DNA from: an uncultured bacterium
GTDB taxonomy: Bacteria; Bacillota; CAZWXO01
Assembly (NCBI GenBank): GCA_964637885.1
Contig: CAZWXO010000003.1
Span: 5-64,004, forward strand
Reading direction: 5' to 3'
DNA length: 64,000 nt
Part shown: in pieces, positions 8,863 to 62,290 of the stretch
Numbering within the stretch: the first letter of the stretch is position 1
How the letters are laid out: each line of letters begins with the position of its first letter
The notes under the pieces: generated by a model
What the model saw: only the letters and a program-made list of their open reading frames with translations
Database searches by the model: none
Told to the model about the DNA's origin: nothing
Position numbers and translations under genes: made by a program

Positions 8863-9396
8863 ATGATGGCTGAATATTTAGAGGTGGTTGCTGGCCTATT
8901 CATGGTTTCGAAAATGCAACCTTTCCGCATTACTCCTGGGGTGACTTTTGATTTTTTACCTTTAGGGGACTTGCCGCGCATCGATTCCATCGAGCGGGTC
9001 ATCCACAAATTTCATGCGCTTTCGCCTGGAAAGGTCGGCAAGGTAAAGCGACCGTGGTATTGCCATCATTTTCAGGACGATCATTTGGTAGTCTTGCATG
9101 GCTGCCGGCATGTGGAGTTATTCTCTAAAGAGCATGGCAAAATTGAAAAACTAACAGTTTATTCTGACTGTATCTATCGCAACAATGTCATGTTGCACAC
9201 TGGCGGGGTGATGTTGACATGGCCCCGGGGCGTCTTCCACCGCATTGTTAGCGGAGATGAGGGGTCGGCTTCGATGAATTTTGCCTCACATTACGAAGGC
9301 TATTCTGAAGCGACTAACTATGATATTTATGATGTGGATATAGAGACTGGAGAAAGCCAGATTATCCGCAAAGGTGTTGAAGATCAAGTAATTTAA
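8863..9396 (+). CDS. Hypothetical protein, possibly a cupin-fold (FdtA/WxcM-like) protein.
   Basis: The 177-aa ORF has an RBS GGAGGTGGG. The His-rich stretch WYCHHFQDDHLVVLHG..H resembles cupin metal-binding motifs. The assignment is weak. Confidence 0.35.
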   Translation: MMAEYLEVVAGLFMVSKMQPFRITPGVTFDFLPLGDLPRIDSIERVIHKFHALSPGKVGKVKRPWYCHHFQDDHLVVLHGCRHVELFSKEHGKIEKLTVYSDCIYRNNVMLHTGGVMLTWPRGVFHRIVSGDEGSASMNFASHYEGYSEATNYDIYDVDIETGESQIIRKGVEDQVI

Positions 9397-10329: not shown

Positions 10330-10525
10330 AAAGAGATGAGCCAGAGGTCGCGAGAAGTAAGAGTAATATTCGCAAGGGGAGGCACCCGATGAGCGGATAT
10401 GAAAGGACTTTTCGCCGAAGCTGAGGTTTGTGCCTTCAAACCAAGGTTGGGCATGTATCGAATAGATGCATGACTGTCGCTTACACCATTCCCAAAGAGT
10501 GTAAGGGAAGCGCTGCTCATTCAAA
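10330..10525 (+). ncRNA. Lysine riboswitch (L-box) in the lysA leader.
   Basis: Conserved L-box blocks are present: AGAGGTCGCGAGAAGTAAGAGTA, GGGGAGGCACC, CGCCGAAGC, and ATGCATGACTGTCGC near the 3' end. P1 pairs GAGATGAGC with GCTCATTC. Confidence 0.7.
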
Positions 10526-10609: not shown

Positions 10610-10641
10610 AATAAAATATTACATAAAAGGGGATGTTAGGA

Positions 10642-12015
10642 ATGCATTTACGCGGAACAATGGAGATCAATGGAGCTGGAAATCTGAGTATCGGTGGCTG
10701 TGATACGGTGATGTTGGCAAAAAAGTATGGCACGCCACTGTATGTAGTTGACGAGCAAGGCATTAGGGAAAACTGTCGGCGACTTAGTTTTGCTCTGGCA
10801 AAACTACAGGTGCCGGCGCGGATTATTTATGCCGGCAAGGCGTTTTTAACCTTGGCGGTTTGCCGTATCATGCAAGAAGAGGGGATGGGGCTGGACCTAG
10901 TCTCTGGAGGCGAGCTCCACACTGCTGTGGCGGCAAAGTTTCCCATGGAAAAGGTATGTTTTCATGGGAACAACAAGAGTTATGAAGAATTGGAGCTGGC
11001 AATCGCTTCGGGAGTTGGTCGAATCGTTGTCGATAACTATTATGAACTTGAAATGCTTGGGCGGATAGCTTCACATGCTGGAGTTATGGCGGATATTTTG
11101 ATTCGTGTCACGCCGGGGGTTTCTGCGCATACCCACGAGTATATTCAGACGGGACAAGAAGATTCCAAGTTCGGGTTCGGGCTGGGGAGCAATCAGGCCC
11201 GAGAAGCGGCGCTTAAGGCATTGTCGATGCCGGCTATCCGTTTACATGGTTTTCATTGTCATATTGGCTCGCAGATATTTAATGAGGAATCCTTTGAGCT
11301 TGCTATCGATATTATGACGGATTTTATTCGCGAGATTCAAATTGAGACCGAATTTGTCACGAGAGAGCTTAATCTGGGTGGAGGCTGGGGTATCCGCTAT
11401 GTTGAGGGGGATAATCCGATGCCTTTGGAAGATTACGTCAGCTTTTTGGCGCAGGCTACTCAGATCAATTGTCAAGAGAAAGGCCTGGAGCAACCGTTGC
11501 TTATCTTCGAACCGGGGCGCGCTTTGGTTGGGGAAATGGGTACGACCTTGTATACTGTCGGGGCGATGAAGGATGTTGTCGGGCATCGGCGGTACCTTTC
11601 CGTGGATGGTGGAATGGGGGACAATCCTCGCTATGCTCTGTATCAGGCGGAGTACGAAGCCGAGCTGGTGACCAAGATTGACCAGCCCCACGATGACAGT
11701 TTTTGTATTGTGGGCAAGTGTTGCGAGTCTGGCGACGTTGTCATTAAAGAAATATCACTGCCATGCGCTGAGGCAGGGGATATCTTAGCTGTTTTTTGTA
11801 CCGGCGCCTATAATTATTCGATGTCCAGCAATTATAACCGCTTACCGCGACCCGCCGCTGTCCTTGTCGAAGGTGGCGAGGCTTCCTTGATTGTTCGGCG
11901 GGAGACCTACGATGATTTGCTGCGGAATGATATTTTACCGGAGCGCTTAGGATTTGTTCATAACCCGGATTTGGCGATTGACTGCGAGGAAGAATTGACT
12001 GAAGTTGCCTTATAA
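10642..12015 (+). CDS. lysA: Diaminopimelate decarboxylase.
   Basis: PLP fold-III decarboxylase motifs are present (NLGGGWGI, IFEPGRALVGEMG, CESGD). An RBS AAAGGGGA lies 8 nt upstream of ATG 10642. The longest ORF starts at 10633. Confidence 0.9.
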   Translation: MHLRGTMEINGAGNLSIGGCDTVMLAKKYGTPLYVVDEQGIRENCRRLSFALAKLQVPARIIYAGKAFLTLAVCRIMQEEGMGLDLVSGGELHTAVAAKFPMEKVCFHGNNKSYEELELAIASGVGRIVVDNYYELEMLGRIASHAGVMADILIRVTPGVSAHTHEYIQTGQEDSKFGFGLGSNQAREAALKALSMPAIRLHGFHCHIGSQIFNEESFELAIDIMTDFIREIQIETEFVTRELNLGGGWGIRYVEGDNPMPLEDYVSFLAQATQINCQEKGLEQPLLIFEPGRALVGEMGTTLYTVGAMKDVVGHRRYLSVDGGMGDNPRYALYQAEYEAELVTKIDQPHDDSFCIVGKCCESGDVVIKEISLPCAEAGDILAVFCTGAYNYSMSSNYNRLPRPAAVLVEGGEASLIVRRETYDDLLRNDILPERLGFVHNPDLAIDCEEELTEVAL

Positions 12016-34891: not shown

Positions 34892-35800
34892 GTGGGAAGG
34901 GTGGAGGCTGAAGTTTCTTTTTTTCGTTATTTAGAGGCAGAAAGGAATGCTTCAGTTCACACTGTGACCGCCTACCGCACGGATTTGCAGCAGTTCTTTG
35001 CTTGGGTAGCTTCGCGCCGCAGAGTCCTTAACCCGCAAGAAATCGATCCGCTGGATGTCAGGGCCTGGATGGGGCAATTACAGCGTGATGGCTATGCTCG
35101 GCGCAGTGTGGCGCGGAAGGTGGTTGCGGTACGCAGCTATTTTCGCTACCTCTGTCACGAAGGTGAGCTGGTCAGCAATCCGCTGGAGGCGGTGTCTTCA
35201 CCTAAGCTTGACAAAAAGCTGCCACGATTCTTAATGGAATCTGAAATTAATACGCTCCTGGATGCAGCGAACAAGAATACCCCGTTAGGGAAGCGTGATG
35301 CTGCCATTCTGGAGCTTTTGTATGCGACAGGCATGCGAGTCGGTGAGTTGGTCGGCCTTGACGTCGGAGACCTTAATTATATGGGTGAGTACGTCTTGGT
35401 GCACGGCAAGGGTCAAAAGGACCGGATCATTCCCCTGGGAGAGCCGGCGATCGCAGCGATTGAGGAATACTGTCGTTCGGCTCGCCTCGTTTTACTACAG
35501 CAACGTGGACAGGGCACTCCTGAGGCGGCGCTTTTTTTGAATCGTTTTGGCGGTCGATTGACGGCCCGGAGTGTGCGGCGCATGTTGGACGATGTAGTCA
35601 AGCGAGCGGCGCTGGGACGGCATGTCAGCCCCCATATGCTTCGGCATTCTTTTGCCACGCATTTACTAAATGCCGGGGCTGATCTGCGCAGCGTTCAGGA
35701 ATTGCTGGGACATGTGGAAATTTCGACGACGCAGATTTATACTCACGTATCTCACGAAAAAATGCGCCAGGTATATAATGATGCCCACCCTAGGGCTTAA
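34892..35800 (+). CDS. xerC: Tyrosine recombinase XerC (CodV).
   Basis: The R..HxxR..Y catalytic pattern is present ([18 protein letters not shown]). The start is GTG 34892 or GTG 34901 after AGGAGGTG. Confidence 0.85.
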
Positions 35801-35813
35801 GGAGGATTATCAA

Positions 35814-36350
35814 TTGGAAGCTACAACGATTGTTGCCGTTCGCAAAAACGGGCAGGCTGCTATGGCGGGCGACGGACAGGTGACTTTGGGTAACACGATT
35901 ATGAAGTCCAGTGCCAAGAAGGTCCGGCGACTCTACAAGGATCAAGTGGTGGCAGGTTTTGCCGGGTCGGTGGCCGATGCCTTTACTCTATTTGATAAGT
36001 TTGAATCGAAGCTGGAGGAATACAACGGTAATTTGGTGCGCTCTGCCGTGGAACTCGCCAAGGAATGGCGAACAAACAAAATATTACAGCGGCTTGAGGC
36101 GATGCTATTGGCGATGGACGCCGAACACACGCTTTTAATTTCGGGGAATGGTGAAGTAATCGAGCCGGACGATGAGGTAATTGCAATTGGATCGGGAGGT
36201 TCATATGCTATCGCGGCAGCCAAGGCGATGCACCGACACACAGAGATGACGGCGGCGGAAATAGCGGTGGAATCGATGCACATCGCAGCCTCAATTTGTA
36301 TCTACACTAACGATAATATTTCTCTAGAAGAATTAACAGGAGGCAAGTGA
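35814..36350 (+). CDS. hslV: ATP-dependent protease subunit HslV (ClpQ/CodW).
   Basis: [12 protein letters not shown]...GDGQVT...[13 protein letters not shown] is near-identical in pattern to B. subtilis CodW. The likely start is TTG 35814, 8 nt after GGAGG. The longest ORF (35670) begins inside xerC. Confidence 0.85.
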
Positions 36351-36351
36351 C

Positions 36352-37741
36352 GTGGAAGGATTAACACCAAGTCAGGTTGTTGCCGAGCTTGACAAGTATA
36401 TCATCGGGCAAAAACAAGCCAAAAAAGCCGTGGCGATTGCTCTCCGCAATCGGATTCGCCGCAAGATGCTGGATGAAACAATTCGGGATGAGGTCTTCCC
36501 CAAAAATATTTTGATGATCGGGCCGACAGGGGTGGGGAAGACGGAGATTGCCCGACGCTTGGCCAAGCTTGATAAGGCTCCGTTTCTCAAGATTGAAGCG
36601 ACCAAGTTTACCGAGGTTGGTTATGTCGGAAGAGACGTCGAGTCGATTGTCCGGGATTTAGTCGAGTCGGCTATTCGGGGCGTTCGTTTGGAAAAAGAGA
36701 CGGAAGTTGAGGAGCGGGCGTATCGGATGGCTGAGGAACGGGTCATCAGTCTATTGATCCGCGGTCCGAAAAAAATAGAAAAGCCGAGCAATCCTTTTGC
36801 CTCGCTTTTCGGTGGACAGGCCTCCGCACCGCCAGAAGACCATTCAGTCAAAGAAGAAAGCAGTGACGAGGGGGAGAAGAGAGAAAAGATGCTGCAGCTT
36901 CTCCGCGCGGGCAAACTGGATAACAATACGGTGGAAGTAGATATCGAGGAGAGCAGCAATCCCTTTATGGGCGCCTTTTTAGGGGCCAATGAGGAAATCG
37001 GGATGAATTTGAATGAAATGTTTGGCAGCATGATGCCTAAGAAGCATCGCCGCAAAAAAATAACAGTCAAGGATGCGATGAAGATTCTGGCTCACGAGGA
37101 AGCAGAGAAATTAATCGACATCGATGCCGTGCAGAGTGAAGCTCTGGAGCGGGTTGAGCAAACGGGCATCGTCTTTCTTGATGAGATTGATAAAATTGCC
37201 AGCCGAGGCGATATGCACGGACCGGATGTTTCCCGGGAGGGAGTGCAGCGGGACATATTGCCGCTGATCGAGGGCTCGACTGTCAATACCAAGTATGGGC
37301 CGGTCAAGACAGATCATGTTTTATTTATCGCCGCCGGAGCTTTTCACGTATCCAAGCCATCGGACCTGATTCCTGAGCTGCAGGGCAGATTTCCGATTCG
37401 CGTCCATCTGGAGAGCTTAGGTAGTAAAGAATTTAAAATGATTCTGACGCAGCCCAAAAATGCTCTGATCAAACAGTATTCCGCGCTTTTAGAAACAGAG
37501 GGCGTGGAGCTGGAGTTTACCGAGGATGCGATTGATGCCATTGCTGATTATGCCGATAAAGTAGGAGACGGAAAATATCGGAGCGCGACGGCTGCACACA
37601 ATTTTAGAGAAATTGCTGGAGGATCTTTCCTTTAGTGCTCCGGACATGGGGATGGGCCGAGTTGTAATCAACGAGGCATATGTGCGGGAGCAATTGGGAG
37701 ATATTATTTCGGACAACGATTTGAGCCGGTATATCCTCTAG
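36352..37741 (+). pseudogene. hslU: hslU (clpY/codX) disrupted by a frameshift near 37564. The in-frame product stops at 37635 (427 aa), and the conserved C-terminal 58 aa are encoded in the +1 frame up to TAG 37739-37741.
   Basis: In frame the sequence reads ...[27 protein letters not shown]. In the +1 frame from 37565 it reads [58 protein letters not shown], which is the canonical HslU C-terminus. A 1-nt insertion or 2-nt deletion sits in gtaGgagacg. Confidence 0.6.
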
Positions 37742-37745
37742 GCAG

Positions 37746-38432
37746 GTGGAGAATAATTTGATTAACGAGATGCTCGCAAAAACTAAAGAAATTGCAACCC
37801 TGGCCAAAATGAGTCCTGTTGGGACTGAGCCGCTTAGCGGTTTTTTGCAGGGGTTTTCTTCGGTGATGAATTGTCACGTTTGTCTGTGCGATTTGGACGG
37901 GAGCATTTTGTTTCAATTCGAGGAAGGTGCAATTGCTGCTGTAGTTGACCAGAAACTTGAGGCGGTAGCTGTGGATGACGATGAGCTGTCCCATGTTACC
38001 TTGCCGGTAGTGTGCAAGGGGACGCAATGTGGCACGATGCTGATGAAGAAGAAAGATGCCCTGACGGTCTGTGATGCTGTCTTGGCTGATTTGGCCACAG
38101 TTTTTATCGCTCAAGAGCTACAGCACGATAGCGAGAAAGAAAAGGAGCTGGCGGTACGACTGCGCAAGGCTGTCCACCACTCGCTGGAGTCCCTGTCCTA
38201 CTCGGAAAAAGCAGCCTTTGCCAAGGTCGCTAAAGAATTGGCAGGGAGTGAAGGAGTTCTGGTCGCTAGCAAGATTGCCGAACAAAGCGGGGTCAAGCGC
38301 TCGGCGATTGTCAATGCGATCCGAAAGCTCGAATCTGCTGGTATCATCGAATCGAGGTCACTTGGGGTCAAGGGAACTTTTATTCGCATCTTGAACCCTG
38401 AAATAGTCTTAGCACTGAAAATGGAAGCTTAG
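37746..38432 (+). CDS. codY: Global transcriptional regulator CodY.
   Basis: The C-terminal half (LSYSEKAAFAKVAKELAGSEGVLVASKIAEQSGVKRSAIVNAIRKLESAGIIESRSLGVKGTFI) is highly similar to the B. subtilis CodY wHTH region. The start is GTG 37746 or TTG 37758 (RBS AGGTGGAG). Confidence 0.8.
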   Translation: MENNLINEMLAKTKEIATLAKMSPVGTEPLSGFLQGFSSVMNCHVCLCDLDGSILFQFEEGAIAAVVDQKLEAVAVDDDELSHVTLPVVCKGTQCGTMLMKKKDALTVCDAVLADLATVFIAQELQHDSEKEKELAVRLRKAVHHSLESLSYSEKAAFAKVAKELAGSEGVLVASKIAEQSGVKRSAIVNAIRKLESAGIIESRSLGVKGTFIRILNPEIVLALKMEA

Positions 38433-50094: not shown

Positions 50095-50131
50095 TGCTTA
50101 GAAGTATTGACACACAAGGAGGTGATGCCGG

Positions 50132-60478: not shown

Positions 60479-61606
60479 ATGTACTTGAATAGCGAATTAG
60501 ATATTAGCGACAACTCCCGCAACTTGATAATCGATGTGTTAAATGGTTTCCATCATGGGCGCTATCAGTGCGTCGTCTTATCAACTGATGCAAATTCTGT
60601 CCGCGTAGCGATGCCCAGTAAGAATGGACTGCCTTTACCGCTGGCAGTTGGACAGCAAGTCAGGGTGACTTCACCCCAGGATGGTGGTTTTTCTTTCACT
60701 AGTTCGGTTGTCGCCCGAAGTATGGCTGATGTGCCCTATATTGAGATTTCCAAGCCTAATAATGGACAGGGAGTGCAAAAATTCGCCCGGATAATTGCCG
60801 TCACCAGCGGCAAAGGCGGAGTTGGTAAAACCAATTTTACCGTTGCGCTGGCCATGGCACTGGCAGATATGGGGAAAAGTGTTTTGATTATCGATGCCGA
60901 CATGGGGTTGGCTAATGTGGACGTGTTGCTAGGGGTGCGACCGAAATACGACCTGACCGATGTTTTTTCAGGGGAGAAACAGTTCCATGAAATTTTGAGT
61001 GACGGCCCTGGCGGGATTAAATTTATTGCTGGAGGAAGTGGAATTGAGGACCTGGCAAATTTAGATGAGAAGCAGTTATTAAAAATTATTGAGAGCTTTG
61101 ACGATTTAGAAAAATTAGCTGATATCATTTTGATCGATACAGGTGCGGGCATTGCAAAAAATGTGACAAGTTTTGTCCTCGCTTCTGATTCAGCACTTTT
61201 GATTACTACTCCAGAACGGACGTCCGTCGCTGATGCGTATGCGATGGTGAAGGTAGTGCTCCTCAGCAATAAGAAAGCAAAGGTCTCGTTAGTGGTTAAT
61301 CGCGCTGAAACTACCGGCGAGGCCGAGGGTGCATATAGGCGCCTTGCAGGTGTTTCTAAAAATTATCTAGATTATGAGCTTGGGTTTGCCGGGCTTGTTC
61401 ACGACGATAGTAATGTTACTCACTCGGTAAAAAAACAGATGTCTTTTTATCGCTGTTATCCTGGCAGTGTGGCTAGCAGGTGTGTTCGGAAAATTGCTAT
61501 TAAAATATGCGAGGACACGAATCCGACGCAAGACCAGAATAACACTGGAGTGAAGGGGTTCTTGGCAAAGCTGAGAAATCATTTTGGCGTTACTTCATCG
61601 AGGTAA
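60479..61606 (+). CDS. Second MinD/FlhG-family P-loop ATPase. It has an N-terminal extension of about 100 aa of unknown, possibly beta-rich, fold.
   Basis: The deviant Walker A TSGKGGVGKTNF, IIDADMGLANVD and ILIDTGAG are present. It lacks the DQAxxLR motif. Residues 1-100 are VVLSTDANSVRVAMPSKNGLPLPLAVGQQVRVTSP.... Confidence 0.7.
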   Translation: MYLNSELDISDNSRNLIIDVLNGFHHGRYQCVVLSTDANSVRVAMPSKNGLPLPLAVGQQVRVTSPQDGGFSFTSSVVARSMADVPYIEISKPNNGQGVQKFARIIAVTSGKGGVGKTNFTVALAMALADMGKSVLIIDADMGLANVDVLLGVRPKYDLTDVFSGEKQFHEILSDGPGGIKFIAGGSGIEDLANLDEKQLLKIIESFDDLEKLADIILIDTGAGIAKNVTSFVLASDSALLITTPERTSVADAYAMVKVVLLSNKKAKVSLVVNRAETTGEAEGAYRRLAGVSKNYLDYELGFAGLVHDDSNVTHSVKKQMSFYRCYPGSVASRCVRKIAIKICEDTNPTQDQNNTGVKGFLAKLRNHFGVTSSR

Positions 61607-61609
61607 GAA

Positions 61610-62290
61610 ATGAATTTAAAAATAAATCAAAGAGTTGAAATAATTGTCCATGATGAACCATACAAGGGTTCTTACCTTAGTCGCGTGGAGAATTATGATA
61701 AAAAGCAGATTGTCTTAGCAATGCCGATGAGCCATGGTGGCTTAGTGCCCGTTCGTTCGGGTACGCTGGTATCAGTTGTTTTCTTTGATGAATTGGCCGT
61801 ATACGAATTTCAGGCTCCTGTCGTGCGGTTGCAGCAGGATAATATTGCTCTTCTCAAGTTAAATCTGCCTGAAAACATTAAAAGGATTCAACGTCGAGCG
61901 TATGTGCGGCTTGAAGTCAGTTTGCCGGTCAACATTTTTATTGAAATGGAAAATGAAACGCAGATGTCGTTAAGTGGGGAAACTGCGGACATCAGCGGTG
62001 GTGGAATTAGGATTGTTTTGAACCGAATGGATTTTGCTAAGATGGCGGAAAAACTTCAATTAGAAAATATGGCTGGAATGAAATTAAAGATGGCGATACA
62101 TTTGCAGCCGTATTCACACGACAAAACGGAGATGGTGGATTTTATTGGAGAAATTATTCGTCACGGGGAGAGTGGAACTTCATTTTGGCTTGCGGTAAAT
62201 TTTGCGGTAGTTAGTGAAAAAAACCGTGATAAAATTGTTAGTTTTATCTTTCGAAAACAACTTGAACTTCGTAATAAAGGCTTGATGTGA
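61610..62290 (+). CDS. PilZ-domain protein, a YcgR/MotI-like c-di-GMP-dependent flagellar brake.
   Basis: The PilZ signature motifs RxxxR (QRRAYVRLEV) and D/NxSxGG (DISGGGIRIV) are present, with an N-terminal PilZN-like beta domain. Confidence 0.75.
   Translation: MNLKINQRVEIIVHDEPYKGSYLSRVENYDKKQIVLAMPMSHGGLVPVRSGTLVSVVFFDELAVYEFQAPVVRLQQDNIALLKLNLPENIKRIQRRAYVRLEVSLPVNIFIEMENETQMSLSGETADISGGGIRIVLNRMDFAKMAEKLQLENMAGMKLKMAIHLQPYSHDKTEMVDFIGEIIRHGESGTSFWLAVNFAVVSEKNRDKIVSFIFRKQLELRNKGLM

Follow-up and report, generated by a model that had tools for sequence, protein, structure and literature searches.

Does the hslU (clpY) gene carried by this Bacillota contig still encode a working HslU, and if its reading frame is broken, does the break belong to the organism or to its assembly? 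The question arises within the window, by which we mean the whole 64,000-nucleotide stretch of DNA analyzed here, at a locus spanning positions 36352 to 37741 of the + strand, where the native frame of hslU is broken after Val404 (37561 to 37563). The gene order around it, trmFO-xerC-hslV-hslU-codY-flgB, is the standard Bacillota arrangement. The gene for the peptidase partner, hslV (clpQ; 35814 to 36350, + strand), lies directly adjacent and is intact; it scored 287 bits against NCBIfam NF003964 (cut-off, 137 bits), and its stop is separated from the hslU start (36352) by a single nucleotide (36351). The start of hslV itself is ambiguous. The probable start is a TTG at 35814, with a Shine-Dalgarno sequence (AAGGAGG) at 35799 to 35805, from which M-E-A precedes the catalytic Thr-Thr (TTIVAV), a short extension that would need processing; processing of an N-terminal extension has been reported for Firmicute CodW. 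With the alternative ATG (35778), the gene would begin within the end of xerC and its product would be 12 residues longer, and the gene calls of relatives are of 178 and 190 amino acids.

Two reading frames for one hslU

The open reading frame that begins at the hslU start codon (36352 to 37635) opens with GTG, encodes 427 amino acids, and ends with a TAG at 37633 to 37635. Codons 1 to 404 (36352 to 37563, + strand) are in the native frame, as delimited by the match to NCBIfam TIGR00390 and by alignment to E. coli and S. aureus HslU; the remainder (37564 to 37635) consists of 23 nonhomologous codons followed by the stop. The canonical HslU C-terminus, native residues 407 to 464, is instead encoded in the +1 frame from 37565 to a TAG at 37739 to 37741, as identified both by TIGR00390 and by DNA identity to two contigs of the same species. 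Another +1-frame TAG (37562 to 37564) lies directly upstream of this displaced segment, and the third frame across the 3' region is closed. Frames and model matches together bear out the initial annotation, which had described a frameshifted hslU with these limits and had placed the HslV-activating C-terminus out of frame.

Despite the break, the 427-residue product scored 550.3 bits against TIGR00390, the hslU equivalog model (cut-off, 362.45 bits), and thereby reached the equivalog threshold. Its residues 4 to 404 matched model positions 1 to 381 of 441, the last 42 codons of the +1 frame matched positions 400 to 441 (E = 6e-9), and the intact HslU of the same species matched positions 1 to 441; the frame break is not a chance juxtaposition, since both halves match this model. 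Positions 382 to 441 are lost from the in-frame product, and the Pfam lid domain ClpB_D2-small, found at residues 359 to 426 of the intact conspecific protein, had no match in the 427-residue reading frame. What remains in frame is the AAA+ core, including the I-domain. Walker A (GPTGVGKT), Walker B (FLDEID), and ELQGRFP with its arginine finger align with E. coli K63, D256/E257, and R325, respectively, whose roles we take to be those given by Song et al. (2000).

The displaced 3' end carries the sensor-2 motif GARRL, the last helices of the lid, and the HslV-docking tail DLSRYIL (consensus, D-L-S-R-[FY]-I-L), the last of these encoded at 37718 to 37738, out of frame with the hslU start codon. 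GARRL is read in the +1 frame only, and the 0-frame product has GDGKYRSAT. Alignment to the chain in structure 1G4A put the loss of frame after the equivalent of E. coli V383, so that the lost segment corresponds to E. coli residues of about 384 to 443, a stretch that contains GARRL (R393/R394) and ends in EDLSRFIL; here we assume that R393 is the sensor-2 arginine and R325 the arginine finger, a numbering that agrees with the alignment. The window gene is thus like known HslU/ClpY (CodX; structures 1G4A, 1DO0, 1G3I, and 6KWW) in its core motifs and in its hslV-adjacent xerC-hslV-hslU-codY order, and once repaired, it can be aligned over its full length with HslU of S. aureus and E. coli. It differs in that the frame breaks after residue 404 of 464, leaving the sensor-2 arginine, the distal lid helices, and the docking tail out of frame.

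A five-nucleotide deletion relative to all relatives found

A protein search with the repaired HslU returned one close cluster (P0001, 95% identity, 464 amino acids), all other proteins being at most 65% identical. Contigs of the same species were retrieved by exact look-up of the FlgB and FlgC proteins of the window; they include two from independent assemblies, a 103.6-kb contig of JGI metagenome 3300020048 (L082/L086) and a contig of ENA ERZ27262925 (L083). These two conspecific metagenome contigs were 99.8% and 99.4% identical to the window, L082 being 99.84% identical over 20.4 kb. Two further contigs, L001 and L090 (the latter from JGI 3300034314), represent a sister species.

Relative to every relative found, the lesion is a deletion of 5 nucleotides, AAACA or, equivalently, AACAA. 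Where relatives read GTA AAC AAG GAG, the window reads GTA G GAG, with five nucleotides missing between GT(A) and (A)GG (37562 to 37564, + strand); the codons for Asn405 and Lys406 are destroyed, and the junction falls at 37562/37563 or 37563/37564. Around this site, L082 and L083 match the window base for base except that they carry GTAAACAAGGAG, and the DNA of the +1-frame segment is 100% identical in both; the sister-species contig L001 has GTAAATAAGGAG where the window has GTAGGAG. All four related contigs (L082, L083, L001, and L090) encode DKVNKETENIG within a single frame of 464 amino acids, and the V-x-x-x-T spacing before ENIGARRL was constant in all homologs examined (P0001 to P0004, P0006, and the S. 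aureus and E. coli structures). The comparison with strains of the same species that the initial annotation had called for therefore found both L082 and L083 intact, and it led to a correction: the lesion had been proposed to be one extra nucleotide or a loss of two, with removal of one base (giving DKVETENIG) as the wild type, where the relatives have DKVNKETENIG. Changes of +1, -2, and -5 nucleotides are indistinguishable modulo 3, so the lesion size could not have been told at that stage.

The sequence at the site and a repeat search around it confirmed that the lesion does not lie in a homopolymer, as had been noted before. The repeat search found no flanking direct repeats, the junction has 1 nucleotide of microhomology, and a search of the site flanks for a hairpin that might explain the deletion returned only 6-nucleotide inverted repeats at chance level. 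A loss of 5 nucleotides in nonrepetitive, nonhomopolymer sequence is not a typical sequencing error.

To place the lesion against the background of the assembly, the JGI contig was tiled over window positions 9387 to 64000 (54.6 kb) using L088, L082, and L089. The three overlapping alignments had identities of 99.80 to 99.84%, with 34, 27, and 33 mismatches (~90 substitutions). In the central 20.4 kb, 23 of the 27 substitutions were at third codon positions, a bias characteristic of strains that have truly diverged under purifying selection. Over the entire 54.6 kb, the gap in hslU was the only net indel relative to this conspecific contig, which argues that the window assembly is not generally indel-prone. 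The only other indel signal was a +1/-1 nucleotide pair, 4 nucleotides apart, in the fliL-fliM spacer (50097 to 50101).

Among the sequences retrieved, this assembly alone carries the allele, the gene being intact in the other conspecific sequences and in the sister species. The truncated 427-residue protein (P0129; NCBI, one contig of 64,015 nt, nearly all of which is the window) occurred once among about 15 billion proteins, and exact look-up in the contig index gave no record of it. A scan of genome contigs with the repaired HslU yielded no conspecifics among the matches listed, in which relatives were at most 62% identical. Metagenome contigs scanned with a gapped pattern covering both hslU alleles gave 0 matches, and a scan with the lineage-specific I-domain gave only relatives of at most 47% identity; the gapped pattern does work on related local sequences, so the scanned collection simply lacks this lineage. 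Look-up of CodY, with an L or an M start, returned no record of further contigs spanning the hslU site.

The lineage as a whole is poorly sampled, with TopA at most 60% and HslU at most 65% identical to proteins outside its own genus-level cluster. Its close relatives are all metagenomic (JGI 3300020048, 3300037045, and 3300034314; ENA ERZ27262924 and ERZ27262925; and two SRA runs). From this remoteness of TopA and HslU and the metagenomic origin of all close relatives, the window contig is very probably part of a metagenome-assembled genome (MAG) from an uncultured, deep-branching lineage of Bacillota.

In kind, the locus is like the ordinary frameshifted pseudogenes and assembly frameshifts of draft genomes and MAGs (labeled "frameshifted; pseudo" by NCBI PGAP): it has a single small indel, both of its halves match one family model, and its close relatives have intact orthologs. 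Nothing sets it apart from these, although a 5-nucleotide lesion outside a homopolymer makes a base-calling error somewhat less likely. Neither the element nor the mechanism is new: this is an ordinary frameshifting deletion in a usual Bacillota operon.

Origin of the frameshift

Selection on the gene bears on the age of the lesion. Between the repaired window gene and that of its congener L001, dS was 1.57 and dN 0.021 (dN/dS, 0.013); for the 60 displaced or destroyed codons, there were 25 synonymous differences and 1 nonsynonymous difference (dN/dS, 0.006). The C-terminus of HslU is thus strongly constrained in its canonical frame in this genus. Compared with conspecific L082, the window hslU has one amino acid change (Q221N) and one synonymous change, none of them downstream of the deletion, and the proteins encoded by hslV and codY are identical. 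With no other decay in hslU and with the HslV and CodY proteins unchanged, the lesion is either evolutionarily very young or not real.

Between these two options, which are also the ones that the initial annotation had offered (a genuine inactivating mutation or an assembly error), we lean toward the former, that is, toward a contig carrying a very recent, genuine loss-of-function allele of hslU. Favoring it are the standing of the gap as the sole net indel against an independent assembly and the nature of the lesion, 5 nucleotides lost without a homopolymer or a flanking repeat. Against it, hslU shows no secondary decay and hslV is intact, the strong purifying selection on hslU makes a fixed null allele unlikely a priori, and the truncated product was found that single time in the protein collections. 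It is quite possible, if short of probable, that the gap instead arose locally in assembly, polishing, or binning and that the organism has an intact hslU of 464 amino acids; possible causes would be a bubble from strain variation or, in the A-rich stretch AAAGTAAACAAGG, a consensus error from long reads. Such an artifact would fit a site that is intact in every other sequence of the species and genus, flanks identical to the conspecific contigs outside the gap, a strongly constrained gene, and a source contig that is probably from a MAG of an uncultured lineage. It would also fit hslU and hslV being otherwise undecayed, but absence of further decay suits an error and a very young mutation alike. 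An error-prone consensus should, however, have left more than one net indel in 54.6 kb, and the site is neither a homopolymer nor flanked by a repeat. Moreover, De Bruijn assemblers output only k-mers present in reads, so that if the assembly was made from short reads, the allele would be present in at least some molecules.

Two further readings would preserve function despite the frameshift, and we reject both. Programmed +1 ribosomal frameshifting, or some other recoding that restores full-length HslU, draws on the overlap of the two frames, so that shifting at GTA|G GAG would yield a product close to the native one, minus two residues, and on a Shine-Dalgarno-like AGGAG at the site. We consider its chances negligible: the shift is absent from all relatives, the conspecific and congeneric genes being single-frame, and there is no slippery codon, since UAG offers tRNA-Val no pairing after a slip from GUA, and a ribosome slipping by +1 at AAA-G would meet the +1-frame TAG at 37562 to 37564. 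Neither a 0-frame stop nor a rare codon is present for pausing, and no run of A or T is present for transcriptional slippage; even the shifted product would be two residues short of a linker that is constant in the homologs examined. With genes of the prfB type, the window hslU has in common only the 0-to-+1 frame geometry, lacking their slippery site, the in-frame stop at the shift site, and the conservation of the shift in relatives. Very improbable as well is a split gene, in which the 427-residue N-terminal fragment would cooperate with a separately translated C-terminal peptide of 42 amino acids (37613 to 37741, ending in DLSRYIL) or the peptide would activate HslV in trans. An open reading frame with a TTG start does exist at 37613, and free C-terminal HslU peptides of 8 to 12 residues activate the HslV peptidase in vitro (PMC6429459). 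Yet that activation needs about 0.5 mM to millimolar peptide and extends to the peptidase only, without degradation of proteins (PMC6429459); in addition, no Shine-Dalgarno sequence precedes the TTG, the 42-residue product would not supply the sensor-2 arginine, and the arrangement is unique to this contig.

A more demanding form of the reading that we prefer, that of a genuine allele, is that the deletion is not only genuine but predominates in nature, in a population of an uncultured, deep-branching Bacillota lineage that lives without HslUV activity while hslV is still intact. We regard this as rather unlikely. If true, the population would show a strongly conserved protease at an early stage of being lost, and the loss might be adaptive, as it has been in some laboratory evolution experiments.

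Predicted consequences and neighboring features

If hslU is translated as written, the 5-bp deletion would make translation leave the native frame after Val404, append 23 unrelated residues, and stop 106 nucleotides early. The 427-residue product would keep both Walker motifs, the I-domain, and the arginine finger. It would lose the sensor-2 arginine, the distal half of the alpha-helical lid, and the C-terminal tail, which switches on the peptidase by inserting between HslV subunits. Binding to HslV and its activation depend on the C-terminal end of HslU, where five of the last six residues are essential (PMC6429459). In AAA+ proteins, nucleotide binding and hydrolysis require sensor 2, which a review places at the beginning of lid helix alpha-7 (PMC5039278). 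By the biochemistry of HslU, and because sensor-2 arginine, lid half, and docking tail would all be missing, the product should not hydrolyze ATP, assemble properly, or activate HslV; it should be misassembled and ATPase-defective, and the allele should be null. The earlier description of the product as a defective protease activator was right about the docking tail but too mild: the sensor-2 arginine and about half of the lid domain go with it, and as the frameshift lies upstream of GARRL, a null ATPase is to be expected rather than merely an activator that does not dock.

The cell would then be functionally HslUV-null, a loss that the literature suggests would be tolerable, the protease being individually dispensable. 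In B. subtilis, clpQ and clpP are individually nonessential and synthetically lethal together (bioRxiv 10.1101/2024.10.15.618472), and swarming is impaired in clpQ and clpY mutants (PMC8767453). A real allele would accordingly be a knockout of HslU that arose naturally in an uncultured lineage of Bacillota, in keeping with the known dispensability of HslUV and involving no new mechanism. The main value of the case is in annotation hygiene. A gene caller yields from this locus a plausible "HslU" of 427 amino acids (stored as P0129), from which presence/absence or metabolic inference would score HslUV as functional by mistake; should the gap be an error, on the other hand, the sequence would suggest a loss of the protease that never took place. 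A fitting label is "hslU, frameshifted (5-nt deletion relative to conspecifics)" and not a short HslU.

Downstream, the codY homolog (37758 to 38432, + strand) is intact, with a TTG start at 37758 and its own Shine-Dalgarno sequence (GGTGGAG) at 37745 to 37751; a promoter and terminator scan between hslU and codY found nothing above shuffled expectation. A polar effect of the frameshift on codY is unlikely because termination is only 106 nucleotides early and codY has its own ribosome-binding signal and start. The suggestion that the lesion has implications for proteostasis in the CodY region is likewise unsupported, codY being intact, separately equipped for translation, and unchanged in protein sequence from its conspecific counterpart. 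The CodY homolog itself is short (224 amino acids) and scored below both NCBIfam CodY cut-offs (167 versus 255 bits); only its C-terminal half and HTH_CodY match well, the GAF-like ligand-binding domain falling below the Pfam threshold, and it may sense effectors other than those of B. subtilis CodY.

Other features of the window lie farther from hslU. A full-length lysine riboswitch (Rfam RF00168, 106 bits) is found at 10334 to 10523 (+ strand), upstream of an open reading frame (10633 to 12015) that is diaminopimelate-decarboxylase-like, with Orn_DAP_Arg_deC domains. Directly after flhF and flhG, a gene at 60479 to 61606 (+ strand) encodes a 375-residue protein in which PilZNR (YcgR N-terminal) is fused to a MinD/ParA-type ATPase, and it is followed by a gene for a PilZNR+PilZ protein (61610 to 62290, + strand); the pairing of these two within a flagellar operon is unusual.
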